Shown here piece by piece: positions 17 to 43,345 of a DNA stretch of 43,345 nt. Under the pieces are notes generated by a model, which was not told where the DNA came from, ran no database searches, and saw nothing but the letters and a program-made list of their open reading frames with translations. The DNA is from Escherichia phage AV102. The first letter of the stretch is position 1. Each line of letters begins with the position of its first letter. A program made the position numbers and the translations under genes. The DNA lies in sequence record OR352933.1; one strand, 5' to 3'.

Positions 17-239
17 TATGTCCTTCGCGGTGTCAACCCTTTTTATCGAGTATCTAACCCTTCACACTATCTAGCTTTAATCCGGCGGAGTCTCCCGACT
101 CTGCCCCGTTCAGCGCCTCAGCGCCTCCCGGTGATTGAACTATAGCGCCAATAAACCAAAAGAAGCAAGTATTTTTTAATGCTTTTTGCAATTATTTATC
201 TCTAAGAGCAAAAAGGGTAAGCAGGGCAAATACTTAGCC

Positions 240-935: not shown

Positions 936-1157
936 GCCGTCTAGACACCCCCCCCCATCCTTTATACACTAGGCACCCCCTATGGGGGCACTGGGGCGCG
1001 TTGAGGGTGAGGGAGGGCCTCGCGTGAGTCTAACAAATTTCGAGTTCAGGTATACATCTGCGCAGGGGAGAAGCCCCAGTGATGTTCCAGGCGCTTCTCT
1101 TGTATGCACTTGCAACCCCTAGAGAGTATCTGTGCTCTTTAGGTGTCAGTAATATAA

Positions 1158-2678: not shown

Positions 2679-2687
2679 TCTGTTCCC

Positions 2688-3287
2688 TTATCTAGGTATA
2701 GCGGCAACTGCCGCTTGCGTTGATTTGAATTCATTCCCTATAGCCTTAGATTCCCACATACGGCGCTCCCATAGGCCCCAGCATACCTTATTACGCTGCC
2801 CGTTAATATACTGAGAGCAGTCAAAGGTCCAGCGGTTGCCACCCTTGTACACCCAACCGGTGCCTGGGGATTTCTGCTGGTACTTGCTAATGTAACGCCA
2901 GTTCAGCACAGCCTTTCCAGCCGCTGCGTAATCTAGGTTTTTGAGGTGCCGTTTCACAGCGCTGCCATTGAAGCCGGCTACGCCTACGTTATAGATGAAG
3001 TCTACAGACCCTATCAGAGCCACGTCAGAGAGCTGCATAGGAAGCCCGTCAAGAGCCTTAGCATGTTCCCCTGCTGATTCTATCAGTTGCTTCTGACAGT
3101 CGCTCAGCGTGGCTCTCTGACCCATTTTGACACCCTTTGTCTCCCCGTAGCAGATCGTAGGGATACCGGCACTGTCCTTGTAGGCTGTAAGACTCAAACC
3201 TTCATTGTGCTGGACTACCTCAGTAATAGCCCCGCCAAGCATAGTAGCCCCGGCGAGTGCAGCTATAACCCTAGTCCTTAAACTCAT
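2688..3287 (-). CDS. Endolysin, T4-lysozyme-like muramidase (GH24) with signal-arrest-release N-terminus
   Basis: Catalytic E-x8-D-x5-T context (NEGLSLTAYKDSAGIPTICYGET); Gly/Ala-rich weakly hydrophobic N-terminus RVIAALAGATMLGGAIT. Start moved to the internal Met at 3287 (RBS AAGGGGG upstream); the track ORF extends to 3311. Confidence 0.8.
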   Translation of the reverse strand: MSLRTRVIAALAGATMLGGAITEVVQHNEGLSLTAYKDSAGIPTICYGETKGVKMGQRATLSDCQKQLIESAGEHAKALDGLPMQLSDVALIGSVDFIYNVGVAGFNGSAVKRHLKNLDYAAAGKAVLNWRYISKYQQKSPGTGWVYKGGNRWTFDCSQYINGQRNKVCWGLWERRMWESKAIGNEFKSTQAAVAAIPR

Positions 3288-3522
3288 ATTTAATAGCCCC
3301 CTTACGTGCATGCTCCTCTAGGAGCTTGTATGTGCGCCATTTATAGTACGCATTCCACGCCAGGGTTAGCACTGCACACACCGTCGCAGTGATGAAGCTG
3401 ATAACACTCCAGTCCCAACTCCTTAGCTCTGCCAACCAACCTCCTGAGACTGTAGCACCAGTAACAGCTGCTCCTGCCCGGGTAGCGAGGTCTGCCCCAA
3501 CTACATCTCCCACTTTAATCAT
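3271..3522 (-). CDS. Holin, pinholin-like
   Basis: 83 aa; Gly/Ala-rich weak first TMD, strongly hydrophobic second TMD (WSVISFITATVCAVLTLAW), charged C-terminus; sits directly upstream of the SAR endolysin. Confidence 0.55.
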   Translation of the reverse strand: MIKVGDVVGADLATRAGAAVTGATVSGGWLAELRSWDWSVISFITATVCAVLTLAWNAYYKWRTYKLLEEHARKGAIKYEFKD

Positions 3523-3919
3523 CCTGCTGACCCTTCTTCCTAAATAGCTTACGAATCACCAGAATGGCCACTAGGAAGACCAAAGGGATGCTGGCCCCTG
3601 CTAATCCGGCGAGAATAAGACTATAACTATCGTTGTTAACCACCTGTAGGCGCTCTGCCTGGATTGTGCCTGTACTAATAGTCTGCACTTGCTTCTTGCT
3701 AGAAGTATCCAGTGTACCTACGTTAGAATCCTGTACATCGGTTTTGTTGGTGGTGCTGGAGTCCACCTTATTATTCAGCCCGAGCATCTGCTTAGTATTC
3801 TCAGCGCCAACCTGAGCAGATACTTCCGGCTTAGAACCAACTAAGCCGGTCAGTGCAGAGGTCGCTGAGCAACCAGTCAGAGTAACCGCGAGCAGTAACC
3901 CAGCGACCAGTTTGCGCAT
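3515..3919 (-). CDS. Candidate unimolecular spanin (lipoprotein with C-terminal transmembrane anchor)
   Basis: 134 aa; N-terminal signal with lipobox LTGC; Ser/Thr/Gln-rich periplasmic body; C-terminal TMD SLILAGLAGASIPLVFLVAILVI followed by RKLFRKKGQQDD; within the lysis cassette. Confidence 0.55.
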   Translation of the reverse strand: MRKLVAGLLLAVTLTGCSATSALTGLVGSKPEVSAQVGAENTKQMLGLNNKVDSSTTNKTDVQDSNVGTLDTSSKKQVQTISTGTIQAERLQVVNNDSYSLILAGLAGASIPLVFLVAILVIRKLFRKKGQQDD

Positions 3920-4101
3920 TAGCTAGCCGCCTTCACCGCTGCAATAGCAGCTTCCAGTGCGGCAACCTTAGTGTCGAACGCTACACCAGTCTGGGCTACG
4001 TTCTGAGGCTGTGTAAGGATTGCATACAGGTCCTTACCCAGAATGTTCAGTTGACGCAGCAGCTCCTGCTGCTGTGCTTGTGTCGCCTTAGCAATTGCCA
4101 T
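3919..4101 (-). CDS. Hypothetical protein (60 aa, Ala/Gln-rich helical)
   Basis: ORF abuts neighbours in the compact late operon; no recognisable motif. Confidence 0.4.
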   Translation of the reverse strand: MAIAKATQAQQQELLRQLNILGKDLYAILTQPQNVAQTGVAFDTKVAALEAAIAAVKAAS

Positions 4102-4114
4102 AGTGATTCTCCTA

Positions 4115-4492
4115 TTATGCTGCAGCAGCGTTAGTCGCTGCTACGAAGGCCGACTGTAGGGCCGTGAATGAGTTGTCGAAGTCTGTACCGGAACCCTCAC
4201 CTAGCGGCATACCTGTACCAGTGAGCGCTACGTAGCCGGTCTTGCTAAGCTGGAACAGCATGGAGAACAGTCGCGCCTGCAGGGTGCCATCATCCTTAAA
4301 GGATTCCCCGACAGCTGTAGCCGGGTAGCCTTGGGACTCCATGTAGGTAAAGAACGCGTTGAATTTATCCAGCGCACCCGTACCCACAAAGCCGACATTG
4401 TAGTCAGGGGCCACCTCTTTCTCAAGGTTTTGGCTCTTGCCTACAATGGCGTACTGTACATCCGCAGACTTAGCCGCGATGATTGATGCCAT
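4115..4492 (-). CDS. Hypothetical protein (125 aa)
   Basis: ORF immediately downstream of the large terminase, 1-nt overlap; no recognisable motif. Confidence 0.5.
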   Translation of the reverse strand: MASIIAAKSADVQYAIVGKSQNLEKEVAPDYNVGFVGTGALDKFNAFFTYMESQGYPATAVGESFKDDGTLQARLFSMLFQLSKTGYVALTGTGMPLGEGSGTDFDNSFTALQSAFVAATNAAAA

Positions 4493-6348
4493 TATCGTCT
4501 TCCTCTATGTTGTTTGCCTCTACCCCGACTTTGCAGCCGTGCAGCGACTCCCCGCAACTGTTTCTGGACCATACCCTGCGCCCAGTCCAACGGGTTATTG
4601 ATGAATGCTAGTGCCTGCTTCTCAGACTCTCGTGCAGCTACCACTTTCTCGTCTTCTACTAGATGCCCGTTCAGTACTGCGACCATCATAGCGATGGCGT
4701 CTGCTCGGTCATCCTTAGCCAAGCTACCCCGGTCATACGTAATACCTGCGAGCTGTGCGAACGCAGAGTACAACCAGCGACGATCTCGGGAGTATCGCAT
4801 ACAAGTCCCAATATCATCGTGAATAGCACGCTCATGCACCACTAGGCGGTGTCGTCGAGTTACTGGGCTGATTGTGTCTATAATACGACGTTCTTTCTGC
4901 GTGGTGTTGTTAATGTCACGCACACCAATACCAGCAAGGCGACGCTCCCTCAGGCGGTTCAGAATCAACATAGACACAGTACCGTGCCCCATGTTACTCT
5001 CCACCACCATGTCAGAGATATCCAACTCTACGCACAAATCAATGAGCTTATCGATATTCTCAGTGCTTACGCCTCCTTGGAAACCCCCAACGGAGAACAA
5101 GTGAATGTATGAGTTTGCAGCCCCACCAGCAGCATAGGAGACTTCATCCCCACCACAACCAGCTGGGTCCACCACCAGCACCTTGTGCTGATACGGCAAG
5201 TGCATATCTCCGTAGAATGCCGGGAAGTACATCTGCTGACCCATAATCCCCTCATGCTCGTGCTGGTATAAGTACCGGCGGTCCGCAATATAGGAGAAGG
5301 TCTCTGGGGAGGAATCCTGGCTACCAGAGTAAACCAGCATATCCGAAAGCTTGATACGTGTACGCATCTGGTCGGACAGGGTTGTGTCGAGCATGTACTG
5401 CAGCTGGAAGCCTTCCGGACCAAAGTCCAGCTCCTTCTCAATCAGCGCATCCTCGTCATAGCGCCCGGGGTCCGTGCTCTCCCCTAGCGTCCCGTCGACA
5501 CCGAAGCCGGTGCGTTTATAGCCGCGCTCAATAAGCTCCAGGATATAAGGAGCAAGTGTACTTCCATATCGCTCTTCCATTTCAACAGACGGAATGCGCC
5601 CAGGCCACACGCGGACCTCGAAGCCACGTCCCGGCAGTGTTTTATAGATACTGTCCTTGGTCTGTGGTGTACCCAGGTACAGCGTATCCCCGTGCGTACA
5701 GATGGCCGCGAAGTCTTTAGAAATCGTCAGCAGCTGCTCGCGCTGGGTTTGCGTTAAGCCGTTCTTGGTGGTCTCGATATCGTCCGGAATCAGTAGGTCC
5801 GCACGCTTCCCCTGTAGGGATGCAGTGATACCTACACAGGCTACGCTGGCGGACTTATCCAGAGGTTTCAGGTCACAGTGTACGTCGTAACCTTCAAAGG
5901 AGGTTCGGTCCCCACGTGTAGGGTCAGCCTTCAAGTAGCACAGCAGCGGCCAGGTTTCCAGCATCCGAATGATTAAGTTTGCTACATCGGAAGCCTGCTT
6001 CTCAGCACCCGACACAATCAGGATACGGCAGGATTGGTCCTGGATGAGCCTCCAGACAGCGTAGAGCGCAGCTAGTGTAGACTTAGCCTCACCACGCTGT
6101 GCAGCCACCATGCGCTTCCTAGGGCCCTTCTGCATATACTCCGCAATGTCGGCTTGCATGTCCGTGAGCGTAAAGCCTAGGAAGCGCATGCCTATATATG
6201 CGAACTCCCTGAAATTACTGAGGGTAGCCGCCATCATCATGGCGATATCCTCGCGCTCCTCTTTGGGAATACTGCGCGGGTTCGCATTATAACCAGTAAG
6301 TTTCTGGTTGAGCATGCGCAGTCTTCGCGCAGTCTTCACCGATACCAT
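4492..6348 (-). CDS. Terminase large subunit (DNA maturase B)
   Basis: 618 aa; size and position after the small terminase match T7 gp19-like arrangement. Confidence 0.8.
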   Translation of the reverse strand: MVSVKTARRLRMLNQKLTGYNANPRSIPKEEREDIAMMMAATLSNFREFAYIGMRFLGFTLTDMQADIAEYMQKGPRKRMVAAQRGEAKSTLAALYAVWRLIQDQSCRILIVSGAEKQASDVANLIIRMLETWPLLCYLKADPTRGDRTSFEGYDVHCDLKPLDKSASVACVGITASLQGKRADLLIPDDIETTKNGLTQTQREQLLTISKDFAAICTHGDTLYLGTPQTKDSIYKTLPGRGFEVRVWPGRIPSVEMEERYGSTLAPYILELIERGYKRTGFGVDGTLGESTDPGRYDEDALIEKELDFGPEGFQLQYMLDTTLSDQMRTRIKLSDMLVYSGSQDSSPETFSYIADRRYLYQHEHEGIMGQQMYFPAFYGDMHLPYQHKVLVVDPAGCGGDEVSYAAGGAANSYIHLFSVGGFQGGVSTENIDKLIDLCVELDISDMVVESNMGHGTVSMLILNRLRERRLAGIGVRDINNTTQKERRIIDTISPVTRRHRLVVHERAIHDDIGTCMRYSRDRRWLYSAFAQLAGITYDRGSLAKDDRADAIAMMVAVLNGHLVEDEKVVAARESEKQALAFINNPLDWAQGMVQKQLRGVAARLQSRGRGKQHRGRR

Positions 6349-6656
6349 TAGACAATTCCTTCTAGTAAGTCCTCAGAGTCTGAACCACTAATCTTGTTTA
6401 AAATCTCTTTCTTACGCGCCTCTCTGCGCGCCGCTAGTTCGTCATCGAATTCATCACGTAGCTCCTGCATCTCCTCGGAATCTGCATCGGCGGTGATGTC
6501 ATTGTCTTTCAGGAACTTGGCAATAACAGATTTATCGGCAGCCGGTAAAGGGACCGCATCTTCCCCGGCCTGACGCAGCTCCTCAATGAGCGCCTCCGTG
6601 AACATTCGGTGCAGGTCACTGAGTCTGCTACGCGTTCCTGCCTTGGATACAGCCAT
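6348..6656 (-). CDS. Terminase small subunit (DNA maturase A), putative
   Basis: 102 aa acidic protein immediately upstream of and overlapping the large terminase; position equivalent to T7 gp18. Confidence 0.55.
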   Translation of the reverse strand: MAVSKAGTRSRLSDLHRMFTEALIEELRQAGEDAVPLPAADKSVIAKFLKDNDITADADSEEMQELRDEFDDELAARREARKKEILNKISGSDSEDLLEGIV

Positions 6657-6665
6657 AAACCCTCC

Positions 6666-7007
6666 TTACCAACCCACGGTGTAAATCAAAGTACCCGCTG
6701 GGAGTTCACTGGCGAAAGTTACAGTAGCACCGCTGAGCGTGTAGCTATAGCCGGGAATCTGAATAATCCCATTGATGTAGATATCTACATCAGTGTAGGT
6801 GTTAGTTAAGGTAAAGGTAGTCCCTGCCTTGGATACAGTCAGGTACGCCGATGTACGGACACCCGGCTTAAGCGGCTTACCCCCAGCAGTGCTGCCGTCT
6901 CCAATAGTCAAAGTGTTGCTAGTGGTCAGAAGAACCAACTCCCCGACCTTCAACACCTTGGTTGCCACTACGGCATCAGCACCTCGGCGTAGTTGTAAAG
7001 TTGGCAT
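6666..7007 (-). CDS. Small tail fibre-like protein, paralog of 7020-7466
   Basis: 113 aa; N-terminus MPTLQLRRG...GEL...GDGSTAGG matches the conserved tail-fibre N-terminal motif shared with the upstream ORF. Confidence 0.55.
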   Translation of the reverse strand: MPTLQLRRGADAVVATKVLKVGELVLLTTSNTLTIGDGSTAGGKPLKPGVRTSAYLTVSKAGTTFTLTNTYTDVDIYINGIIQIPGYSYTLSGATVTFASELPAGTLIYTVGW

Positions 7008-7019
7008 TTCTACCCCCTA

Positions 7020-7466
7020 TTAGGTAATGACACCCAGGTCAATATTTCCCAACGTAGTAGCGATGGTAACAGCAACTGAGCCATCAAAGTTAGCTGTACC
7101 AGTAACGGCACCAGACAATGCAATAGCTCTGGCAGTAGTCAGCTTAGCAGCACTACCCGTGGTGTTGACACTAGCAGTACCGGTTAGCAAACTTGCTGGG
7201 ACAGCGGTAACTGCAAACGTAATGTCAGCACTACCGTCGAAACGTCGAGGGGCCGCCGTAATACCGGAGAAGCCAATAGTTCGAGCAGTCTTCAGTTTAT
7301 CGGCGGTGGATGCCGGGGTACCGGCACCTACCGGGAAGCCACCTGCGGTTGTACCATCACCCACGTAGATAATTTTAGCGGTGCTGTCATACACCAGCTC
7401 CCCGGCAAGCGGGATATACTTAGAGACCTGGGCGGTAGTCCCACGTTTAAGTTGTAAAGTTGGCAT
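7020..7466 (-). CDS. Small tail fibre protein with two internal fibre repeats
   Basis: 148 aa; N-terminus MPTLQLKRG...GEL...GDGTTAGG; two internal repeats KLKTARTIGFSGITAAPRRFDGSADITFAVTAV and KLTTARAIALSGAVTGTANFDGSVAVTIATTL typical of phage tail fibre repeats. Confidence 0.6.
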   Translation of the reverse strand: MPTLQLKRGTTAQVSKYIPLAGELVYDSTAKIIYVGDGTTAGGFPVGAGTPASTADKLKTARTIGFSGITAAPRRFDGSADITFAVTAVPASLLTGTASVNTTGSAAKLTTARAIALSGAVTGTANFDGSVAVTIATTLGNIDLGVIT

Positions 7467-8218
7467 CAGAGTTCTCCTAAGTCCATGTTATATACATACT
7501 CTTTTAAGTCGTCGAACTCAGACCGTGACACTGCATCCAAGTCCGTCGAATCCTGTCCGATACGCACAGATACTACTGTACCAGCCGGAATTGTCTCAGC
7601 CAGGATAATCTGGTTGTTCGCAATACTGAACCCGTAACCGATATCCTGGTGCACCCCATCAAGATACAAGGTGGCGCGAGTAAATCGGTACGGCGGGCTG
7701 ATGGTATTAGTCGGGACCGTGGTAACAGTACACCACGGGATAGTCACATCATCCGTGTTTATACCCTGCTCAAGCGCGGTTACACGGGCATCTACCGCAT
7801 CCAGTTGTCCCTTGTTTACAGCGTCGCCAGGATTAACACCATCCCCAAGATTGGTAATCCGGTAGCCGTTCATGCTTATATCCCCGTAGAATCCGGGGAT
7901 GGCCCTACCCTCCACCATCTCTTGAGCTAAGTGTAAGAACTGTGTGTTTTGAGAGTCTACGTTCACCTCGATGAATGGGGAACCACTAGCAAACTCAATG
8001 TACAGATACTCGCGCTCAGTCTTGCGAATGAGCAGTACCGTCGTATCCGCTGTTAAGGCTGTGTTCAGCCTAATATTTGTAGAGCTGGTCCAGGTGTACC
8101 CAGTGGTTTCAACGCCGTCGAGATATACATGAATATAGGACTTGTCCAAATACTCAATATCACACTGGATATCCTGGGTACCAGCTGGCTTGATTTGCTC
8201 TTGCCAGCTGTACGCCAT
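7466..8218 (-). CDS. Tail fibre adaptor protein (homolog of the T7 gp17 N-terminal tail-attachment domain)
   Basis: 250 aa; position directly after the gp16-like gene; N-terminal region resembles T7 gp17 N-terminus; no enzymatic or distal domain. Confidence 0.7.
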   Translation of the reverse strand: MAYSWQEQIKPAGTQDIQCDIEYLDKSYIHVYLDGVETTGYTWTSSTNIRLNTALTADTTVLLIRKTEREYLYIEFASGSPFIEVNVDSQNTQFLHLAQEMVEGRAIPGFYGDISMNGYRITNLGDGVNPGDAVNKGQLDAVDARVTALEQGINTDDVTIPWCTVTTVPTNTISPPYRFTRATLYLDGVHQDIGYGFSIANNQIILAETIPAGTVVSVRIGQDSTDLDAVSRSEFDDLKEYVYNMDLGEL

Positions 8219-8219
8219 A

Positions 8220-11200
8220 TTAATCGTCTCCGAAGTTATTGATGATAGCTCTCGTAGGTGCGAATTCCTGGACCAATGGGACCTGCTTAGTGAAGGTCTG
8301 GATATCCATATTTCCAGTAGCCAGGTCCTGTACCGCCCCCAGTAGACCCGTAACGTAACCCATAGACGCCAGCGAGTGACGTGGAGAGTCCCCAGTGAAG
8401 ATATCCTGCAGAAGCGAGATACCGCCGATGGCGCTCATACCCATAACCGACTCAGCGATAAGCTTCTGAGTGTCGGCCTCTTTGCCGTCCATACCGTGCT
8501 TCGCTATAGTAGCGAGTAGCATCAGCGGGAACTGGTACGCCATGATGTGTGCAACCCCAATCCACCCAGCATCGTTCAGTTCTCGGCGCAGAATCTTGTT
8601 GGTGGCAGCCAGGGCGAAGCTCTGGTAGCCAACGATTACTTTACCAATAGGGTTAAACTGTGCGAAGTGTGAGGTCTCACCGGTACGTACTTGCTGCACC
8701 AGATAATCCATCATTCTGGTACCTACCACCTCAATTTGCATTTGCAGGTCCGGCTGGAACATAGCACCAGGATTAGCTTTGTTAGCAGCAATAGCCCGGT
8801 CAGCGATTTCACGAGTAAGACCGAAACGTTCCAGACGCTTAAACGCCTCAGCGTCGCCCTTGAACATCTGCTGGAGTTCATCCGCTACAATACCTGAGTT
8901 AAGGTTAACCTGCAGTCGATGTACCATACTCATACCGTTGACGTGACGCGCAGCCTGTCCAACGTTCTGGGTGACGTTAAACCAGGAAGCCTGACGGGTC
9001 AGGTCCAAGTTATCGTCTGCGTAGGTATTCAGCCAGCGGAAGCGCATCTCCTTCTGGATACTGCCACGTAGGATTGTATCCAGGCGACTAGCCATGTCCG
9101 GATTACGAATAGCTACGGCACCCTCTTTAAACCAGGGCTGCTCACGCATACTGCGGAGTACTCGGGACATACCAAACTCTTTCAGCGCTAGAGCGGTGTC
9201 AGTAAGCTGGTACAACCCAGAGTTCTTAAGCATGGTAGCGTTGGCCATGTTACCGGCTGCACGGAGCAGGTCCGGCATTTGACCGGCGTCGGCTGGTGCT
9301 CCACCCAGGATAAAGTCAATGGTGTCATTAACGGTCTTCTCCCACTTACCCGAATCGGCTAGGGCGTGTTTGGACTCGTTAATCATCGTCTCCAGCATCT
9401 TGAGGTCAGATACCCCAGCATAAGCCATACCTACACGACCTGACATACGATTGGTGTAACCGTGCATTACCTTGGCTACATCAGTATCCATCAGGTCCTG
9501 CATACGCATAGCCTGACCATCCACGATGTACTCTTTGTCCATGTTGAAGCGGGTACGTTGACGGAGGTTCTTAGCAGGCGAGGTAGCGCCAGATTCTCGG
9601 ACATTACCTGCCAAGAAACTCTGGATTGCACTCTCGTCTACGCCAGCATTACGCATGGCCATAACCACTTCATCATTACCCATACCATTGATGAGTTGCT
9701 TCCACATAGGACCAGAGGCCGAGGAGCGTCCGTTGTAGATACCATCAACCATCTCCTTAGCAACACGTTGAACGACCTCAGGTTCCATAGACGGATACAC
9801 GTCACGTAATGCCTGGCGGAATAAATCTCGGTAGTTATCCAGGGAGCGACCGTTCGCAATACCTTGGCGCATCTTATCGTAGCTGTACTGGCGTGGGAAG
9901 TAGTAGTCTGATTTAATCAGAGTACCTTCATCCACTAAACCGGCAGCGGTCATGTGGTCATGCCACTTACTAGCCCAACCAGAGTTGCGATACGCCTCAA
10001 CAAGCGGAACTAAGTCAGAGTCCGGCAGAGGTACAGGGCGTCCATTAACCTCAGCGCTGTATGCAGAGTCCAAATAACGGCCCAAGCGGTCTTCTAAGTC
10101 AGCGCGAGCTGCTCGGAAGTTGCTACGATGGAAGAAGCGGTCCGTGAAACCTACACCTTTGGCCTTGAGGGCACCAAGTATAGCATCCTCAACTACACTG
10201 GCACTAGCGTCCATCTCCAACGTAAGATTACGTTTGAAGTCCACCACAGACGGTTTACGACCGCCTACAGCAGTAGCGTCAGATACTAATAAGCGTGCCA
10301 GGTCCTCACTACCCTCTGCGATGTTATCATACAGGGAGAACATAGTGGCGAACTTGCGCTTAGCAGTTTCCATCATAGCTTGGGCCTTCAAGGCCTCATG
10401 CTTAACCGATGTATCCGCCAAGTCCTGGAAGGCCTCACTCCGGAAGCTCTGAGCTTGGTCTGCGTAGTCCTTTGCGGTCCACTTGACAGCGTCCTCGTAC
10501 GCGTCCAGAACATCCTCCAGGGCCGAACCCTTGGTACGGACCCCAAGCGCATTCATGATGTACTCACCAATCTGGCGGAGCATGCTTTTACCGGTAGGGG
10601 ATTTAGTTCTAGAGAGGTATTCTACCCACTCAGGGCTGTCGCCTAGTCCGGCCAGCATCTCGTGCACGTCACTGGCATAATACTTAAATTTATCACTAAG
10701 AGTTGAATCTGCTGCTATTGCAGCGCGCACCTCTTCCAGCTTACTAGCAATTTCAGGATTCTGCTTGATGGCTCTGGTGGTGGCAGCGTGAATCAACTCG
10801 TGCACTGCTACTCGGCTAGTGTCCGCATCCATAGCACGCAGAGCATCCCCGGCAGTAGTCCAGGTACTTCCGTTCGCTTTCTTAGGGGCACGTAAAGATA
10901 TAAAACCCCTATCAGTTGTTGATGCTGGTGAAAATCCATAGTGACTACGGTTAGAAGAACCGGCCACCAGTTTAAAGTCGATATCCTGTACTGCGTCACC
11001 CAGGGTGTCCAGGATAGCCTTCTGACCTTTAGATAAGTGTTCAGAGGTCTTGAGGAAACGGACTACGTCCTGCGCTTTCATGTTAACAGCAGCAGTGTTA
11101 TTCCGGCGAACTTGGATAGGTTCATCCAGTACCTTAGTGAGTATTGTGTCCCCTTCTCCTACTCCTGTAACATTAGCATCCCTTGCTGTACGAGTTGTGG

Positions 11201-18199: not shown

Positions 18200-18244
18200 A
18201 TTTGTTCCTCTATTAAAGACCCCTAGGACCCTTAAGACAGGGAC

Positions 18245-18290
18245 AAAAAAAAAAAAAAAAGCCCCCGGCACCCGAAGGCACCAGGGGCGC
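18245..18290 (-). terminator. Intrinsic terminator after the capsid module: 12-bp stem with UUCG tetraloop followed by U16
   Basis: Minus transcript GCCCCUGGUGCC-UUCG-GGUGCCGGGGGC then 16 U (plus-strand A16 at 18245-18260); three G-U wobble pairs mean it folds well only on the minus transcript. Position equivalent to T7 Tphi. Confidence 0.8.
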
Positions 18291-18502: not shown

Positions 18503-19522
18503 TTAGGGCTTGGTGGTGAAGGTGAACTTAGTCACTGCCGCTGTATCAGGACGACGCAGACCGATGTTATACATCGCGTAGCAGTCCAGAACGTTGTTGA
18601 ACTCGCGCTGGTCATCCCAGATACGAGAAGTGAATGGTTTAGCTTCTACCGTCACCAAGGTCTTGGACTTACTGAAAGTTACCATGCGACATTTCGCATC
18701 ATCCTCAGTGACCGTGTAAGCGGTACCCAGCGGATGCGTACCAGCCTCAGTTGGGAACTCAGTACACTCTACTACCGGCACACCGTTCATCTTCACAACC
18801 CGGCGGTTCTTGTAACCATCGTCGTTGGTTGCGCCGAACTCAATATTTAACAGCTTCGGATGCTCCAGCAGACGCGAATAGGTATCGACATCCACCAGGG
18901 TAATCATGTCCGCCAGCGGAGTCTTACGCTTGATGAGTTCATCAATACCAGCCTTGTGGGCCAGGTTGATGTTCATGGCGTTCGCTTCCATCTCAGCCTG
19001 AGTCAGCTGCTTATCTGGAGTACTACCCGCTACGAGGATGGAGGCACCGACTTCAATACCGTCGTTGAATGCAGGCTTCAGGTGCGCTGGTGCAACCCAG
19101 GAACGGCCCTTGATGAGCTGAATCAGGTGCGCCTGGTCAAAGGTCTCCGCGAACTCTGAACCGTTGTTCTGACCTAGCTCAGAGAGGAAGTCCGGACCAG
19201 TCCAGTCGTCCTGGTAGTCGATTGGGTTACGGATGTACAGCACCGTATCCACTACGATAATCATCTTATCGTTACGGACCGGAGTGCTATCCAGCGCTTC
19301 ACCAGAACGACGACCCTTCACCGCAGAGGTATTCAGGCGGTCGATACGGTAGGTGTTAGAGCCGCTGATAGAGCGCTGGCTAGAGAGGCCTAGGAACAGC
19401 GCCTGGTACTGGAAGCGGGTGTCCACTTCGTTCTGGTACACTTCCAGGTGAATATCGACGTCGGACGCCGCGCCGCCCCAATGTGGACGAGTGTCACCAG
19501 CTTTATAAATAGTATCTGCCAT
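18503..19522 (-). CDS. Major capsid protein
   Basis: 339 aa; position after scaffold; size typical of T7-like gp10. Confidence 0.85.
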   Translation of the reverse strand: MADTIYKAGDTRPHWGGAASDVDIHLEVYQNEVDTRFQYQALFLGLSSQRSISGSNTYRIDRLNTSAVKGRRSGEALDSTPVRNDKMIIVVDTVLYIRNPIDYQDDWTGPDFLSELGQNNGSEFAETFDQAHLIQLIKGRSWVAPAHLKPAFNDGIEVGASILVAGSTPDKQLTQAEMEANAMNINLAHKAGIDELIKRKTPLADMITLVDVDTYSRLLEHPKLLNIEFGATNDDGYKNRRVVKMNGVPVVECTEFPTEAGTHPLGTAYTVTEDDAKCRMVTFSKSKTLVTVEAKPFTSRIWDDQREFNNVLDCYAMYNIGLRRPDTAAVTKFTFTTKP

Positions 19523-22742: not shown

Positions 22743-22759
22743 TCCTACTCCTGTAACAT
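22743..22759 (-). promoter_or_regulatory. Copy 3 of the exact 17-bp element, between the SLOG-like gene and the next ORF
   Basis: Plus-strand tcctactcctgtaacat; minus-strand AGGAG within it also serves as the RBS of the downstream ORF. Confidence 0.45.
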
Positions 22760-22765
22760 TAAATT

Positions 22766-34468: not shown

Positions 34469-34636
34469 TTAGCCCTCCGAGCCTTGTTAATTGCCAAGTG
34501 CACAATCAGCTGGCTGCTATCCAGTGCGAACCGTTTACGGAAAGTACCTGCAGATGCAGCGTACGCCTTGATTACCTCATCGTCGAGATAGTTAATGTCT
34601 AGTGGTTTAAGCATGGTAGCCTCCTATGTACCTACA

Positions 34637-34659
34637 TAGCGCCCTCTAGGAAGGCGCTA
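34637..34659 (-). promoter_or_regulatory. Hairpin downstream of the helicase gene, related to the early-region hairpin family
   Basis: 7-bp stem TAGCGCC/GGCGCTA with 9-nt loop; shares the 3' flank GGGCGCTATGT (minus strand) with the hairpins at 41871 and 42656. Confidence 0.45.
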
Positions 34660-34665
34660 GGGAAG

Positions 34666-35946
34666 TCACTTGTTAATCTGCCCTTCGTTAAAGCGGCACC
34701 TACCTGGGTCGAACGCTACCTCGAACTGTAGTAGCGACTCTTTACCTGATAGAGCCATCTTGTTTTTTGGTGTGCTGATACCACGAATGTTTTGCATATG
34801 CGGCTGCTCGTTCCTGTCCAAGCACCCCATCATAATCGCCAAATCCAAAGCACCTTGTACACCAATCTTACTCTGTTTCATTGCCGTGAGCGGAGGGAAC
34901 AGCAGGTTGTAACCTTCGAGTGAAAGCTGCATAGTACCGATAACGGCACAGTCATTCTCACACCCCAGGATACGCAGCTCCTGCCACTTCGCTTCTAGAT
35001 TCTGGTGCTCGCTCTCCATAGTACCACCACGGATGTTCGCCACCATGTCAATGATGATTACCGCTGGGCGCATCTCCTCCATGAGCGTAGAGATTTGAGC
35101 CATCGTAAGGGAGTGCGCTGCCTTGATACGGATGCGGTCTGCCCTACCTACTTTCTCCAGATAGGCTGGCACAAACTCTTGCTTACTGTGCCTGTCCTTA
35201 ATCTCAGCCAGAGTCCAATGCAGCGCCGCTTGATATACCCTCGGCACAGTGCGCGTCGCCGGGCCTTCATTAACCAACCATAGAATCGGACGGTCTCCGT
35301 ATACTTCCGGTTGTTGCTGCATCTGCTTAGCAAAGTCCACAGCAATAGCAGCGAGTAGGCTAGTTTTACCAGAATCAACAGGGGCAGCCACAGCAATACA
35401 ATCACCACCGCGAAGCCCACGGATGTTATTAGAGAGTTGCTCAAATACACCCAGCTTAAGACCGCCACTTTCATCAGTTGCGGCAAGTATCTCATCAACA
35501 CTTCCGCTCTCCCACTCTAGTAGCGAATCATGAACAGCAGCACCATCACCGTACTTGCGCTGGAGGTGCTTCATCTCCAGCAGATAATCAACCTCCTCGC
35601 CGTCTTGGTAGCGCTGTGTGAGCGCTGCAACCTCTCCGCTGTACGCCAGCTCGTTCAGGGTCTGCACAATCCCCACCACAGAATCCTGTGGTACGGCTTG
35701 TACTCCTCGCATAAGCTCGTCCATGATTACCCTCTCTTCCCGGGATAAGTGTCCGGCCCGGAGATTGAGCATACTCTGCATTGCGTCCCACTGCACCTCC
35801 TGGTGCTCCGGGTACGTGTTCCAGTACAACCCCACCCAGTCCAGTAGGTTAGAGGTATCGGGGGCGAGCATGCTCTTGGGTATCTGCTCTCGCAGTCGGT
35901 TCCAGACCTTCTGTGTGCACATTGCCTTGACTACTATTAGGTCCAA
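34666..35946 (-). CDS. Replicative DNA helicase (DnaB/gp4 helicase-like)
   Basis: Walker A AAPVDSGKTSLL; 426 aa; separate from the primase. Confidence 0.8.
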   Translation of the reverse strand: MDLIVVKAMCTQKVWNRLREQIPKSMLAPDTSNLLDWVGLYWNTYPEHQEVQWDAMQSMLNLRAGHLSREERVIMDELMRGVQAVPQDSVVGIVQTLNELAYSGEVAALTQRYQDGEEVDYLLEMKHLQRKYGDGAAVHDSLLEWESGSVDEILAATDESGGLKLGVFEQLSNNIRGLRGGDCIAVAAPVDSGKTSLLAAIAVDFAKQMQQQPEVYGDRPILWLVNEGPATRTVPRVYQAALHWTLAEIKDRHSKQEFVPAYLEKVGRADRIRIKAAHSLTMAQISTLMEEMRPAVIIIDMVANIRGGTMESEHQNLEAKWQELRILGCENDCAVIGTMQLSLEGYNLLFPPLTAMKQSKIGVQGALDLAIMMGCLDRNEQPHMQNIRGISTPKNKMALSGKESLLQFEVAFDPGRCRFNEGQINK

Positions 35947-38861: not shown

Positions 38862-40858
38862 TAAGCTGCCTCCTGTTCTGCTTTAGCTTCTTTGTCTTCT
38901 TCGGCTTCTTCATTACCGAGGTAGGGCTCATCCAATACGGACGCAGCATACTCCGTGAGAATCATACCGTGCACTGGGTGCTCTTCGGCATGCACACTCA
39001 GAACATTGTACCCTTGTACGCACACCATTGGCCCCATATCATGAACTGTGCCCTCTACAGCACAATGTTTTACGTCACAGTCAAGTACCCAAGAATCGTG
39101 GTAATCGGACCATGAACAATCCCATGATGGGTACACCCGGTCGCGCCCTACTACTTGTACGTAAGTATCCCCAATGCAGTGGGTACATACATAACCACCA
39201 TCAGCAGCTATGTACATGTCCTCCTCGTCGAAACGTCCCCCACACTCTGCACAAGCACTGCGACCATCATCAATCCAAATGTACCCATCAGCGTCCTGCG
39301 CTTCGTAGTCGTAGCAGTCGCAGATAACGAATGCATCCCCGCCCAATTCATCAACCCCGTCTTGGTTCCCATCCAAGTACGGCATAAGCACGGCACCATC
39401 ATGCTCCGGGTGCGGGATACGCGCCAGTAGTGCGCCATCTAAGCAGTCTGTATCGCACTCATATCCATTAGCACGCAGGATGGCATCTGCAGCATCCCCA
39501 TATGCACGGACGTATTCATTGGTTTTGATGTTAACGATAGCACGGGCGTGTACTTTAAAGTCATCGCCAAAAAGTTCACCTGTATACTGAATAAACAGTC
39601 GCAGATTATTGTCAGGCAGGCCGTGACTGGTCGTAGCGTATACACGCACCGGGCTATATTCGAATTTGTATCTGGTCATGCAGCTACTAGGGCCATTCTC
39701 GTACGCGTTGTACCACTCCCGCTCGGTCTTACAAAGATATGTAGTAGGTTCCACGTTCATAGCTTTGAGGTCTTCAATACATTCCCGGAAGTCTACACCG
39801 CTGCCGTAGTAGTTAGCGAGCCACTTACCTACACGCATCTCCACACAGCGATACTCAGTAACAGCGGCATAATCTTTGTGCAACCGCGGTTGCCCCAGCA
39901 TTACTACAGGCTCACCGTTGCGGAAGCCAAAACCCAGCGGGATTGCAAACCTAGACACTACAAATCCGTGCAACTGCATAAGCAAGGTTGCTGCCCAGTA
40001 ATCTCCCTCACGCCCAGTGTACGCGCCGCAAGTGTATTTGGCCCGGAGGGAGTACGTAGGTGCTAGCATAATCTCTTCGAACAACTCTATAGCCTGCTTG
40101 TGCACTTTGTATCCGGTAAAGTATTGGACCGCTTCTACTACGCGTTCTGTAACTACGTCGGGGCCATCATAGAAGGTTCTGCTAGATAAACCGAATGCCT
40201 GGTCGCAGGTGGCTGCAGGGTCAAGGAGTTTATGCAGGAGAGTGTCACTAATAGAAACTGTGCCCAGCGGCCCAGTAAAGTTACCCAACTCCTCTCCTGC
40301 AGCTGTAAAGTTGCCGAGTGCTACAATAGGTCCCGGCAGCACCCTTGACAACATATAAACGCCATGCAAAAGCGCACGTGTTTTGTTACTTCGCACGCGC
40401 ACACGGCCTTGAGTTGATAGGTAGGGAAGTTGGCACCAGTAATCCCCGGAAGAGTACATACTATCCTTCAGTGGAAGAGCATTGGCCCCTTCTGGAAATT
40501 TGATGGTCCAACTCTCATAGACAGGTACTTTTACGTCTACAGTTACTTTGTTAGTCTCTTGCATTTTCTTTGTCTCCGGTGTTAGTAGTAACTCATCATA
40601 CGTTAAAAGTTCAGCGCGCATACCACGCAGAGAGTTGTCGCTGCTTGTAGTAGGCGCGGAGTGCTCTTCTAAATTGCGTATAAGCCCCGCGATACCCATA
40701 CTTCCGTAGCGCTGCAACCACATCAAATGCGATATGCTCTTGAAGTTTCCGCGCGGCAGATTCTGTATACTCCCGGTATGCTTTGAGCACAACCGTTGTG
40801 TCTTGCCTGCGCACTCTAAGTATTCGGCGATCGACCGGTACAATTCCTTTGAGTTCAT
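38861..40858 (-). CDS. Large early orphan protein with Cys/Asp-rich C-terminal region and acidic tail
   Basis: Up to 665 aa; start uncertain (alternative ATGs at 40621 and 40564; the first 82 codons overlap the upstream ORF). C-terminal region has CxxC...CxxC pairs (CAECGG...CTHC); no enzyme motif recognised. Confidence 0.55.
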   Translation of the reverse strand: MNSKELYRSIAEYLECAGKTQRLCSKHTGSIQNLPRGNFKSISHLMWLQRYGSMGIAGLIRNLEEHSAPTTSSDNSLRGMRAELLTYDELLLTPETKKMQETNKVTVDVKVPVYESWTIKFPEGANALPLKDSMYSSGDYWCQLPYLSTQGRVRVRSNKTRALLHGVYMLSRVLPGPIVALGNFTAAGEELGNFTGPLGTVSISDTLLHKLLDPAATCDQAFGLSSRTFYDGPDVVTERVVEAVQYFTGYKVHKQAIELFEEIMLAPTYSLRAKYTCGAYTGREGDYWAATLLMQLHGFVVSRFAIPLGFGFRNGEPVVMLGQPRLHKDYAAVTEYRCVEMRVGKWLANYYGSGVDFRECIEDLKAMNVEPTTYLCKTEREWYNAYENGPSSCMTRYKFEYSPVRVYATTSHGLPDNNLRLFIQYTGELFGDDFKVHARAIVNIKTNEYVRAYGDAADAILRANGYECDTDCLDGALLARIPHPEHDGAVLMPYLDGNQDGVDELGGDAFVICDCYDYEAQDADGYIWIDDGRSACAECGGRFDEEDMYIAADGGYVCTHCIGDTYVQVVGRDRVYPSWDCSWSDYHDSWVLDCDVKHCAVEGTVHDMGPMVCVQGYNVLSVHAEEHPVHGMILTEYAASVLDEPYLGNEEAEEDKEAKAEQEAA

Positions 40859-40955
40859 CTGGAACCTCTTTGAATATTTCCCACGGGCAGCCGCACTTGC
40901 CCTGCGTTTCTAGCAAGCGCCAACACAGTAGCGCTGTTTCGTCTACTGTAAGCAT
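40611..40955 (-). CDS. Hypothetical basic protein (114 aa)
   Basis: Arg/Lys/Tyr-rich early ORF. Confidence 0.5.
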   Translation of the reverse strand: MLTVDETALLCWRLLETQGKCGCPWEIFKEVPDELKGIVPVDRRILRVRRQDTTVVLKAYREYTESAARKLQEHIAFDVVAALRKYGYRGAYTQFRRALRAYYKQRQLSAWYAR

Positions 40956-40957
40956 AC

Positions 40958-41173
40958 TTAATCCTTGAATACTACGTTGCGGGCCACTAGTGTATTCTTG
41001 TCGCTGAATATTACACCGCCAATTTTACGGTATGATGCACTCCAACGGTTTGTATTAGGTACAGCGACTTCCGCACCGAAATACAGGGGGCTGTCTAAGT
41101 TCACCCGGTATAGCAGACCATTTGGACGCTTGTATACGTCGTATCTAACCGACTTGTTCTTACTATTGTTCAT
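40958..41173 (-). CDS. Hypothetical protein (71 aa)
   Basis: Early-region ORF. Confidence 0.45.
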   Translation of the reverse strand: MNNSKNKSVRYDVYKRPNGLLYRVNLDSPLYFGAEVAVPNTNRWSASYRKIGGVIFSDKNTLVARNVVFKD

Positions 41174-41355
41174 ACTACACCTCGCACATTAAAACGGTGA
41201 CAATAACCGCGCAAGGTCATACCCAGGCGCTTTGCTTGTTTCTCATAGTGCTGGCGCAGTGCTGCCTTTGCGCTATACTCCCGCGCCAGCCCGTCAATAG
41301 TTTGCTGCTGCTTACGTATAAGCAGCATCTCGGGATTCTTTCCGTACATACTCAC
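41170..41355 (-). CDS. Hypothetical protein (61 aa)
   Basis: Early-region ORF. Confidence 0.45.
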   Translation of the reverse strand: MSMYGKNPEMLLIRKQQQTIDGLAREYSAKAALRQHYEKQAKRLGMTLRGYCHRFNVRGVV

Positions 41356-41368
41356 CTCAATACTTACC

Positions 41369-41632
41369 TCAGATACCGTTGTTGCTTACACCGTCCACGG
41401 TCAGAGTTACAGCGATGTTGGGTTCTTGCTCTCGCACCGCCTTGAGTAGACGGGCACCTAATGCCTTACAACCGCCCTCTGGATTCTCAAAGAGGTCGTA
41501 CTCAGGGCGTGGTTGCTGCTCTTGGTGCTGCTCTTGTTGAACGTGTACAGTGCAATAAGGCACTGGGTTATTCACGTCGTTGCCTAGCACCAGCATAGCG
41601 CTGGTAACAATGATATTGACAACACTAGTCAT
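41369..41632 (-). CDS. Hypothetical protein (87 aa)
   Basis: Early-region ORF. Confidence 0.5.
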   Translation of the reverse strand: MTSVVNIIVTSAMLVLGNDVNNPVPYCTVHVQQEQHQEQQPRPEYDLFENPEGGCKALGARLLKAVREQEPNIAVTLTVDGVSNNGI

Positions 41633-41846
41633 AAAGTTGTCTCCAGTCGGTAATAATACCGAGATTCACGGCATCCAGCAAAGTACGCGCCGCTGCTTCG
41701 GTATAGGTGTCTACGAGATCTAAAGGGAATTCCTGATTGGTGTCGCGGTCAGAGAATATCATCACAGTATAGTTATACTCTGCGTGCACTTGATTGCACC
41801 ATAAGGGCCAGAGTATATGCCCCGGATAGATTAGCTTTGCTTTCAT
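41625..41846 (-). CDS. Hypothetical protein (73 aa)
   Basis: Early-region ORF with GAGG RBS, about 25 nt downstream of a conserved hairpin. Confidence 0.55.
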   Translation of the reverse strand: MKAKLIYPGHILWPLWCNQVHAEYNYTVMIFSDRDTNQEFPLDLVDTYTEAAARTLLDAVNLGIITDWRQLYD

Positions 41847-41870
41847 TTGAAACCTCGTTGTTAACGGTAT

Positions 41871-41901
41871 TCACATAGCGCCCCGCAGGACGCTATAGGC
41901 T
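41871..41901 (-). promoter_or_regulatory. Conserved early-region hairpin element, copy 1
   Basis: Minus transcript AGCCUAUAGCGUCC-UGCG-GGGCGCUAUGUGA: 10-bp stem including G-U pairs, so strand-specific. Confidence 0.55.
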
Positions 41902-42034
41902 TACCATTATACGTATTCTCCCAATCCCTCATAGTGCCACCTGTTATGGCGGCCCCGGGTTGGCACATCAAAGGCGTCAGAGTCGTTAGCTGCCGGAATC
42001 AATGCCCACCACTTGATAGCTTGAATCTTATAAA

Positions 42035-42619
42035 TCATGCCGCTACCTTCAAAGTTGCATCCAATACAGCGCGTACATCCACGCCCTGACTGATAAGCAT
42101 AGATACCAAATCAGAGTCGCTCACCCCAGTTTCTTTAGCCTTCTTGATAGCGTTTTTAACGCGCCCCAGCGCTTGCAGGCGCACTGCATCGGCATCAAGG
42201 GCATCATTCTTCACTTGTTCCGCTTCGGCAGCGTACAGGGCCATGCAGGCGCTGTAGAAGCTGGACACAATCTCTTCCCGGCCTTGCTTATCAGCTTGTT
42301 TATAATCCAGACGCACGGCGTCCAGCTCGATACCCAGTTTCTCGGCTGATGTATAGCACTTTTTGGCGTGGAACTCGTACTTGCCCGACTCCTTGTTGAA
42401 CTTGATAGGTAACAAGGTACGCAGAACCATATCGAAATCAGCGGCATCACTGCGCTGCATATCCGTTGCCCATGAAACGTTACTACTAATCAGGCCGTGA
42501 AACAGTGCGCTGATAGTGATGTTGCGTTTTGCTTCCACTACATCGCCCAGCGCTTTACGGATGCTACCCGCAGCAGTTAACTTGAATACTTTGGCAGTTG
42601 CATTGGTTGCTTTAGTCAT
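42035..42619 (-). CDS. Hypothetical early protein (194 aa)
   Basis: ORF with AGAGGTG RBS; no recognisable motif; not strongly acidic. Confidence 0.6.
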   Translation of the reverse strand: MTKATNATAKVFKLTAAGSIRKALGDVVEAKRNITISALFHGLISSNVSWATDMQRSDAADFDMVLRTLLPIKFNKESGKYEFHAKKCYTSAEKLGIELDAVRLDYKQADKQGREEIVSSFYSACMALYAAEAEQVKNDALDADAVRLQALGRVKNAIKKAKETGVSDSDLVSMLISQGVDVRAVLDATLKVAA

Positions 42620-42655
42620 GATGCACCTCTTTGATTGGTTGTTTAGGTAATTACT

Positions 42656-42686
42656 TCACATAGCACCCCATAGGATGCTATAGGCT
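42656..42686 (-). promoter_or_regulatory. Conserved early-region hairpin element, copy 2
   Basis: Minus transcript AGCCUAUAGCAUCC-UAUG-GGGUGCUAUGUGA: same 10-bp stem as copy 1 with one G-C pair replaced by A-U. Confidence 0.55.
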
Positions 42687-42690
42687 GTAA

Positions 42691-42906
42691 TTAGCGTCCG
42701 AACTGCCCAGCAGTGTACCAGCCTTGCGGGGCCTTGCTGCTTCCCTTTGTTTTGGTCTTACCGCGTACATTCGTACTAAACGTCGCAGATTGCTTCATCC
42801 GCATATACCCAGCACGATTAAGTGCATCCCGGCGTTTTCTCAATTCCGAACCGGATAGCTTCTCAAGTCCAGCGAATTGCTGTGCTAACTTCTCACGATA
42901 TTTCAT
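42691..42906 (-). CDS. First early gene, small basic protein
   Basis: Start MKYREKLAQQF at 42906 (GAGGTG RBS); the track ORF starts 15 nt upstream. Confidence 0.5.
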   Translation of the reverse strand: MKYREKLAQQFAGLEKLSGSELRKRRDALNRAGYMRMKQSATFSTNVRGKTKTKGSSKAPQGWYTAGQFGR

Positions 42907-43179
42907 TGTACACCTCATCAAAGTTAATGGTTAGCGCCCTAGCAGTGTTTAGCAGGACGCTAACTTTTAACCTTGTTGCCCACTGCACTACCGTGGAACC
43001 TGTGGTTCAGGTTTCGGCGCTATTCTTTTAAGGGGCAGCGCCTCAGCGCCCCCGCCGTTTGTCGTCTCGGCCCTTGACGTTACATCTTTGCTGCACTGAT
43101 TATCTAGGATTGGTCGTCATCGTACCAGTCAAGGTACTGGGCCTCACCGCAAATCAGCTTACTACGTTGTTCGCTATCT

Positions 43180-43208
43180 AAGTTACTAGGTGAATCGGAA
43201 CTTGTCAA
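43180..43208 (-). promoter_or_regulatory. Candidate host sigma70-type early promoter
   Basis: Minus-strand TTGACA (43208-43203), 17-nt spacer, weak -10 TAACTT (43185-43180); AT-rich upstream; about 270 nt before the first gene. Confidence 0.3.
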
Positions 43209-43329
43209 GCGTTTATTTCTTACTACCTGTTAGCGCCTCCTTGCGCGTCCTACCTTGCATCTTCCGATGCCTCCCCGTTGAAGCCTTTTAACGTGATGCT
43301 AATCACCTATCGGGAAGTCTTCTTACTTC

Positions 43330-43345
43330 GGGATTCAATCTAGCT
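43330..43345. repeat. Terminal direct repeat copy matching positions 1-16
   Basis: Same 16-mer as the window start; boundary is approximate by 1 nt. Confidence 0.6.

Follow-up and report, generated by a model that had tools for sequence, protein, structure and literature searches.

Conserved RNA hairpins between the early genes of Escherichia phage AV102 resemble the RNase III processing sites of phage T7

The genome of Escherichia phage AV102 (OR352933.1), an essentially complete KP34-like podovirus genome (Drulisvirus, Autographiviridae) whose 43,345 nucleotides (nt) were analysed as a single window, contains a family of four hairpins, all of them intergenic and on the sense strand, of which two are full copies (H1 and H2, between early genes) and two are diverged (H0 and H3). 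Selection for the folded structure is strong, since many independent compensatory changes are found over about 300 phage records, far beyond the single base-pair exchange from which a first-pass annotation had argued for selection on RNA structure. The hairpins are ordinary in kind but mis-annotated, and by analogy an RNase III signal of the T7 early type is their best-supported function, a reading to which we would give moderate credence. The sequence motif itself is already known and carries a refuted promoter annotation; new here are the longer hairpin, its covariation, the extra copies, the spread among phages and the RNase III geometry.

The first-pass annotation had reported two 31-nt elements with a 10-bp stem between early genes on the minus-strand transcript, and this description holds. 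The elements, AGCCTATAGCATCCTATGGGGTGCTATGTGA (42686..42656) and AGCCTATAGCGTCCTGCGGGGCGCTATGTGA (41901..41871) on the minus, coding strand, agree at 27 of 31 positions; what differs is one covarying stem pair, A-U in the former and G-C in the latter, and two loop bases, four positions in all. A degenerate pattern for the pair matches exactly two sites in the window and none in 100 dinucleotide shuffles. As RNA each forms a 10-bp stem with a 4-nt loop and two U.G pairs, at -12.9 (z -2.6) and -16.1 kcal/mol (z -3.3) respectively, and both the exchange preserving pairing and the G-U pairs had thus been read correctly. The 31-nt unit is the conserved core of a hairpin of about 50-56 nt (42648-42693 and 41862-41909), about twice the length first given. 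When 12 nt of flanking sequence are included at either end, H1 and H2 fold alike into a lower stem, an internal region, the 10-bp upper stem and the loop, the internal region 5'-AGCC/UGAA-3' being made up of A.A, G.A, C-G and C.U, so that 21-23 positions are stacked (10 bp of upper stem, four internal positions and 7-9 bp of lower stem). The lower stems of H1 (UAAUUAC/GUAAUUA) and H2 (UAAUGGUA/UACCGUUA) share no sequence, but both pair. H1 occupies the gap between genes 1 and 2 and H2 that between genes 3 and 4, with the TAA stop codons of gene 1 and gene 3 inside the respective 5' lower-stem arms. The further claim that the structure exists only on the mRNA strand was overstated, since the antisense strand also forms hairpins, albeit weaker and interrupted ones (56-nt elements, sense versus antisense, -18.9 versus -16.7 kcal/mol for H1 and -26.5 versus -15.3 kcal/mol for H2). 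The ribosome-binding site lies outside the structure of both hairpins, and folding of H1 and H2 gave no mutually exclusive alternative and no pairing with the ribosome-binding site. Rfam covariance models run on 40500-43345 assigned no family, the only match being noise at E 6.3.

Copies from other phages were drawn from two IMG/VR scans, a BLAST search of a phage collection and eight fetched relatives. The BLAST search returned 297 records, 211 from Klebsiella, 53 from Pectobacterium and 19 from Escherichia phages, the remainder from phages of Cronobacter, Enterobacter, Shigella, Pantoea and Dickeya. The element is present in at least eight Autographiviridae genera, the groups with it including Drulisvirus (Slopekvirinae), Phimunavirus, Stompvirus and Kotilavirus (Corkvirinae), Wanjuvirus (Melnykvirinae), Bonnellvirus, Waewaevirus and an unclassified Cronobacter phage, and every copy is intergenic and reads on the coding strand. 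With a covariance model derived from 18 sequences aligned without gaps, 103 copies, 82 of them distinct, were recovered from the collected loci, which gave both further instances and covariation. Among the distinct copies 93.7% of cells are standard pairs, compared with 76.1% after shuffling (reached in 0 of 500 shuffles) and 22-47% with slid partners, 14 of the 19 pairs vary on both sides, and the covariation score is 0.43 as against 0.14 shuffled and at most 0.11 slid. Individual compensatory events are a stronger argument for pairing than these formal cell counts. The loop-closing pair changes from C-G to U-A (mellemsur; L028, with C.A intermediates) or to A-U (BF25/12, PPWS2), the fourth pair from the loop is A-U or G-C across copies, the eighth goes from U-A to C-G in loci L039 and L040 with a C.A intermediate in L038, and in LIMEzero two neighbouring upper-stem pairs are flipped. 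The lower stem occurs as 39 haplotypes across phages, at least 12 of them unrelated in sequence, and in a gapless count its positions -1 to -7 are paired in 40-61 of 64 distinct copies with two to four Watson-Crick types each, the low value of 40 reflecting a conserved A.A mismatch at position -4; its cells comprise 239 Watson-Crick pairs, 18 G.U and 47 others. The upper helix contains 163 G.U as against 6 A.C cells, and under the covariance model the sense strand reaches 63-78 bits, the antisense strand about 11. The corresponding asymmetry in the lower stem is not significant (18 G.U versus 13 A.C), which leaves the upper-stem wobbles and the model scores as the grounds for assigning the structure to one strand. 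A MAFFT alignment of 65 copies misplaced two site classes by one column in the 5' flank and was excluded from the pair counts, and a conservation profile is given little weight, being partly circular since the copies had been chosen by the core pattern.

The loop bases vary freely (UACG, UAUG, UGCG, UGUG, CAGU, UCCG), and the core, AGCCUAUAGC..GCUAUGUGAA, is nearly invariant in about 300 records. Homologues of gene 2 that are 48-51% identical occur in Corkvirinae (L064 1829-2398, L066 2562-3116, L069 2571-3134), and since the same hairpin precedes each of them, hairpin and gene 2 make up a module that is conserved from one subfamily to another. Unrelated genes, too, have the hairpin in front of them, namely gene 4, a small open reading frame (ORF) before the DNA polymerase gene, the PP2 primase gene and, in mellemsur, the gene after the SAMase gene. 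Natural hybrids that join the 5' half of site 1 to the 3' half of site 2 were seen in three loci (L034 204-260, L042 9956-10012, L009 9129-9185); gene 4 directly follows gene 1 in these phages, which indicates that recombination between the repeats removed genes 2-3, and the hairpin is kept with a mismatched lower stem. A third full copy is found 88 nt after site 1 in Klebsiella phage myPSH1235 (L025 6796-6939) and in L057 (12898-13041), where it has its own lower stem, GGUUAAU/AUUAACC, and a tiny ORF separates the two copies. A scan for the core in 185,579 bacterial and archaeal species gave three single matches, all in Bacteroidota (Marivirga and two Flavobacteriaceae) and none in Enterobacterales, a total below a rough chance estimate, and a CRISPR-repeat mimic or a host repeat is thereby ruled out.

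The two diverged copies were not part of the first description. H3 was revealed by folding all intergenic gaps of the window (-20.7 kcal/mol, z -1.6); it repeats the layout of 10 bp, C.U and C-G, and at least 11 relatives keep it, at a distance of 7.0-8.2 kb downstream from H1. Its GUGACUU segment contains the TGA stop of the upstream gene, and the upstream gene's stop codon is thus found in the 5' lower-stem arm of H1, H2 and H3 alike. H0 is the third and weak match of the covariance model (42915-42979, 16.7 bits, E 0.1), but its fold is very stable (-31.3 kcal/mol, z -7.5), and folding of the regions upstream of gene 1 found it kept in relatives with compensatory changes. Drulisviruses with a different first gene (loci L003, L006, L020, L028 and others; L005, L010, L025, L055) have no H0 and carry other long hairpins there, which either stack an upper stem of 9 bp on a lower one of 10-12 bp or form a continuous helix of about 30 bp.

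Read from the loop, the pairs of the family are C-G, C-G, U.G, R-Y, C-G, G-C, A-U, U-A, A-U and U.G, followed below the upper stem by C.U, C-G, G.A, A.A and the lower stem, and this order can be set against what is known of substrate recognition by RNase III. The E. coli enzyme accommodates a helix of about 22 bp (Altuvia 2018; Pertzev & Nicholson 2006), to which the stacked length found here, roughly two turns, corresponds. At least 11 bp are required from loop to scissile bond (Pertzev & Nicholson 2006), and the 10 bp plus C.U of the family give 11 positions, as in native R1.1, a few relatives having 9 bp and a 5-nt loop (CB5). Position 2 of the distal box is subject to a 'stringent requirement' for U.G, its change to G.U costing 50-fold and that to A-U more than 30-fold, and every distal-box substitution tested in the minimal T7 substrate cut cleavage at least 5-fold (Pertzev & Nicholson 2006); in 78 of the 82 distinct copies a U.G pair with 5'U/3'G orientation is the eighth pair above the first mismatch and hence falls on this position. 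G-C or C-G at proximal-box position 2 blocks binding, and beside the scissile bond it blocks catalysis, native R1.1 having U.C there (Pertzev & Nicholson 2006); position 2 is A-U in 82 of 82 copies, and hence free of the antideterminant, and position 4 is a C.U mismatch in 62 of 64 copies and C.C in two. All four hairpins of the window combine U.G at the eighth pair above the first mismatch with an A/U pair at the second. Both box features occur together in 3.8% of 9-13-bp stems in shuffled sequence, and as the four copies are paralogues this match is supportive but not decisive.

The early operon of T7 is transcribed by the host polymerase. Folding of the five T7 early intergenic gaps gave hairpins with a conserved sequence, CUCAAGGUC..GUGGCCUUUAUGAUU, wobble pairs and upper stems of 9-12 bp, U.G being the eighth pair and an A/U pair the second in R1.1, R0.3 and R1. 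A bridge between the two systems is provided by Pantoea phage LIMEzero (L070 2291-5080), in which each of the eight gaps between early genes holds a hairpin of two stems separated by a small internal loop, the lower stem GUGAUUUC../..GCAAUCAC recurring in several of them. The first gap has a KP34-type core (38.7 bits), and in the second the upper stem GAAGGCAUUC-AAGC-GAGUGCCUUC agrees with that of T7 R1.1, AAGGUCAUUC-GCAA-GAGUGGCCUU, at nine pairs out of ten, with GAUUG next to it on the 3' side in both phages. The KP34-type hairpin thus belongs to a series of interchangeable hairpins, one of which all but duplicates a proven RNase III site.

From this likeness we infer that hairpins of the H1/H2 type are probably, if far from certainly, processing sites of the host RNase III that leave a protective 3' hairpin on early mRNAs. 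The lower stem, the non-canonical region and the 10-bp upper stem would together offer the two helical turns that the enzyme binds, with docking on the U.G 'distal box' and an A/U-rich 'proximal box' and cleavage within the internal region, roughly 13 nt beyond the loop on its 3' side (GGGYGCUAUGUGA^A). R1.1 yields a 28-nt upper-stem product, which corresponds to cutting 11 nt ahead of the loop and 13 nt past it (Pertzev & Nicholson 2006), and by analogy the 3'-side cuts are predicted between 42656 and 42655 in H1 and between 41871 and 41870 in H2, possibly accompanied by 5'-side cuts between 42684 and 42683 and between 41899 and 41898. After the 3'-side cut the upstream mRNA would end in a protective hairpin, H1 in the case of gene 1, and the downstream cistron would gain a free and unstructured leader. 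The analogy with the T7 early genes, already drawn in the first-pass annotation, is thus borne out in size, internal loop, distal-box U.G, proximal-box A-U and intergenic place.

Several points nonetheless weigh against processing by RNase III. Distal-box position 1 is C-G in H1, H2 and H0 and the canonical U-A only in H3, the U.G pair is replaced by C-G in 3 of the 82 copies, and one weak LIMEzero copy has G.U. The natural hybrids with a mismatched lower stem are viable. The sequence AGCG(U/C)CC..GGGCGCU is kept across the diverged paralogues H0 and H3 and in several genera, a conservation of the upper stem that exceeds the apparent need of an enzyme reading structure, so that another, sequence-specific partner may be involved. 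The alignment behind the covariation counts was fitted to the model, and its copies are related by descent, so that the cells are not independent events. The coordinates of the T7 sites R0.3-R1.3 are those we take to be right, two T7 records being without site annotation. Moreover, no transcript-end or cleavage data for Drulisvirus or its relatives, LIMEzero included, and no relevant transcriptome or RNase III work on KP34-like phages or LIMEzero were found in the literature.

A sequence-specific reader of the hairpins, such as a phage early protein or a host factor that binds the RNA and controls cistron translation or stability without RNase III cleavage, would account for the near-invariant core in about 300 records, including the part kept in H0 and H3. 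In one version of this proposal gene 2 would regulate itself; it comes after the hairpin in several genera and is retained together with it in Corkvirinae, and the early proteins, all without assigned function, leave room for a partner. We nevertheless regard it as unlikely, since the hairpin also stands before unrelated genes and persists in phages lacking genes 2-3, the loop bases are free to vary, the ribosome-binding site is outside the structure, and LIMEzero keeps the architecture in eight gaps with differing sequences. Extended to the whole family, the same idea would make the hairpin a sequence-specific RNA signal of at least eight enterobacterial Autographiviridae genera read by a dedicated partner, either an uncharacterised early protein or RNase III reprogrammed by a phage factor. 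With such a partner, in our estimate likewise an unlikely one, the constancy of AGCG(U/C)CC..GGGCGCU and of the C.U/C-G/G.A/A.A region amid drifting surroundings would be explained, and messages of the early and replication genes would be coordinated by it in their expression or decay. Alternatively the hairpins could be passive stabilisers or insulators that block 3'-5' exonucleases or isolate cistrons, the transcript ends being made by other nucleases. They do begin at the upstream stop codon, fold stably (-19 to -31 kcal/mol) and are intergenic and on the sense strand, but a G+C-rich stem of 10 bp would suffice for this purpose, and the conserved internal region, the selected lower stem (about 22 positions) and the match to the RNase III boxes would be left unexplained. 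A purely passive role thus seems quite unlikely, although stabilisation is also an expected consequence of RNase III cutting and the two are not truly exclusive.

The remaining alternatives concern transcription or the DNA itself, and here the history of the motif is relevant. Eriksson 2015 (Viruses 7:1804; PMC4411677) described a MEME motif with the consensus AGCCTATAGCGTCCTACGGGGCGCTATGTGAA as a putative phage promoter of Kp34likevirus, at the same two positions in KP34, SU503, SU552A, NTUH-K2044-K1-1 and F19, and offered nick sites as an alternative. The AV102 elements have this sequence and these positions, whereas the extended hairpin, the covariation, the diverged copies and the wider distribution are not in that paper. 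In SU552A the motif is annotated as 'promoter, discovered using MEME', and GenBank KP708986 still annotates it as a promoter. A full-text literature search for the motif strings returned Eriksson 2015, Lu 2019 and otherwise an unrelated neuroscience paper, and no paper proposing an RNA function for the motif was found. That it should be a promoter for the single-subunit phage RNA polymerase is hardly credible: it was the only long repeat upstream of genes in the MEME analysis of Eriksson 2015, and its CCTATAG faintly recalls T7 and SP6 promoters, but KP34 RNA polymerase yields no RNA in vitro from a template bearing it, the actual promoter being T(A/G)ATGTTACAGGAGTA (Lu 2019; PMC6834552). Exact 16-mers of this strong promoter, which differs from the motif, are found on the minus strand of the window at 474-489, 11160-11175 and 22746-22761 and at none of the hairpins, which confirms that the true phage promoters lie elsewhere. 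The hairpin sites are moreover upstream of the polymerase gene, among the earliest genes, and covariation of the flanks is not a promoter property.

A DNA-level element, be it a single-strand nick site, a cruciform or protein-bound palindrome, or a replication or recombination signal, is highly improbable. The element is an imperfect palindrome whose antisense strand also folds, more weakly, and recombination between copies deleted genes 2-3 in some phages, but such deletions are the expected by-product of any direct repeat. The flanking arms covary without sequence conservation, which speaks for a folded single strand and not for a duplex binding site, the two conserved wobble pairs would be A.C on the opposite strand, and the phiKMV-type nick consensus occurs at chance level and not at the hairpin sites. 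Finally, the hairpins are situated within the early operon downstream of host-type promoters, where a transcription attenuator or terminator, or an antitermination (nut-like) site for the host RNA polymerase, might be sought. The attenuator option of the first-pass annotation is however not supported, given the lack of a U-run after any copy (3' flanks GUGAAGUAAUUACC and GUGAAUACCGUU), of a terminator-like call at these sites and of an alternative fold competing with the hairpin or pairing with the ribosome-binding site. A boxB hairpin has 5 bp and a pentaloop, unlike the stem and loop found here, and the sense strand of the early region contains no boxA-like word, which together make a role of this kind exceedingly improbable.

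The features of the window are collected in Table 1. All genes are on the minus strand, with the early end at coordinate 43345, and among sequence records the window is nearest to two Escherichia phages, EC22.5-2 (94.5%) and Minorna (91%), both recorded as isolated on E. coli, with about 230 Klebsiella phages next in order. The window is the reverse complement of the genome, cut within the first host-type early promoter, so that its minus strand opens ...AGCTAGATT and what precedes the early operon, a region containing poly-G and recurrent CTAG-rich words, sits at the low-coordinate end (1-990). This promoter candidate is truncated by the window end at 43345; the other may be a host-type promoter judging by its near-identity to a published prediction in phage F19, and it was not flagged by a simple promoter scan of the window. 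The early and middle polycistronic transcripts are presumably made by the host RNA polymerase, because the phage polymerase promoters lie elsewhere. PHROGs and Pfam searches with nine early proteins gave none of known function and no candidate RNA-binding partner or kinase. Further into the genome a conserved rho-independent terminator (GCCCCTGGTGCCTTCGGGTGCCGGGGGC plus 16 T; 18213-18287, minus strand) lies downstream of a 65-aa ORF and a 339-aa ORF (18503-19522), the latter presumed from its position to be the capsid gene. Directly after the terminator, and just 5' of the next ribosome-binding site, is a hairpin of 10 bp with a 3-nt loop, CUUAAGGGUCC-UAG-GGGUCUUUAA, in which pair 8 is likewise U.G and pair 2 A-U but whose fold is no better than that of shuffled sequence (z -0.2).

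Table 1. Hairpins, early genes and promoter candidate of the AV102 window (hairpin segments in 5' to 3' order as RNA; aa, amino acids)
Feature	Coordinates	Strand	5' side	Loop	3' side	Remarks
Hairpin H1, between genes 1 and 2	42648..42693	-	lower-stem arm UAAUUAC 42693-42687; AGCC 42686-42683; upper stem UAUAGCAUCC 42682-42673	UAUG 42672-42669	GGGUGCUAUG 42668-42659; UGAA 42658-42655; lower-stem arm GUAAUUA 42654-42648	77.6 bits; -18.9 kcal/mol, z -3.4
Hairpin H2, between genes 3 and 4	41862..41909	-	lower-stem arm UAAUGGUA 41909-41902; AGCC 41901-41898; upper stem UAUAGCGUCC 41897-41888	UGCG 41887-41884	GGGCGCUAUG 41883-41874; UGAA 41873-41870; lower-stem arm UACCGUUA 41869-41862	63.2 bits; -26.5 kcal/mol, z -5.1
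Hairpin H0, diverged copy	42919..42975	-	lower stem (9 bp) CAAGGUUAA; upper stem GUUAGCGUCCU; upper stem also read as GUUAGCGUCC	enlarged top	upper stem AGGGCGCUAAC; upper stem also read as GGGCGCUAAC; lower stem UUAACUUUG	5' leader, just 5' of gene 1 ribosome-binding site; 2x2 internal loop AA/CA
Hairpin H3, diverged copy	34626..34669	-	GUGACUU; CCC; UAGCGCCUUC	CUA	GAGGGCGCUA; UGU; AGGUACAU	directly 3' of DnaB-like helicase gene
Early gene 1	42691..42906	-				71 aa; phrog_6352; no known function
Early genes 2 and 3	41907..42619	-				gene 2 at 42035-42619, 194 aa, phrog_5277; gene 3, 43 aa; flanked by H1 and H2
Early gene 4	41625..41846	-				73 aa; phrog_7657; first gene 3' of H2
Host-type promoter candidate TTGACAAGTTCCGATTCACCTAGTAACTT	43180..43208	-				upstream of H0

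The reading as RNase III sites assigns to the KP34-like phages' most conserved non-coding motif a function that can be put to the test; these phages are widely used in Klebsiella phage therapy and are the source of KP34 RNA polymerase. If it is confirmed, T7-style RNase III punctuation ahead of the takeover by the phage polymerase would extend to the phiKMV-like/Drulisvirus group, Corkvirinae, Bonnellvirus and related groups, pointing to an old and shared strategy in Autographiviridae, and the hairpins would serve as compact RNA-processing insulators in synthetic operons. The hairpin sites are furthermore safe boundaries and natural recombination points for engineering of the early region, genes 2-3 being naturally deletable between the repeats.

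Compared with known systems, the AV102 hairpins resemble the nut sites of the lambda type in being short RNA hairpins near the start of an early operon that act on the transcript, but they differ in lacking a boxA word, in having a stem of 10 and not 5 bp and a variable loop, and in possessing a lower stem and internal loop without counterpart there. With REP-like elements and other 3' stem-loop stabilisers they share the property of being stable sense-strand hairpins right after stop codons; unlike REP-like elements they are absent from bacterial genomes, as the scan of species indicates, and their conserved internal loop and two-turn length exceed the needs of a simple barrier. The closest parallel is found in the T7 sites R0.3, R0.5, R1, R1.1 and R1.3. 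Sequence homology between the two families is not detectable, the covariance model giving nothing at E<=10 in T7 1-8200, and AV102 is unlike T7 in its C-G at distal-box position 1, its symmetric 4 x 4 internal region with a central C-G, its regular 7-9-bp lower stem and its fewer full copies (two, plus two diverged), processing here being predicted from structure. Both systems however consist of sequence-related hairpins in the intergenic gaps of the early operon, with an upper stem of 9-12 bp and a loop of 3-5 nt over an internal loop and lower stem, and in both G.U pairs occur and the stem base and internal loop are conserved, the top being variable but compensated. Indeed the AV102 hairpins, like T7 R1.1, place a C.U mismatch next to the (predicted) cut site, with A-U as the second and U.G as the eighth pair above it.

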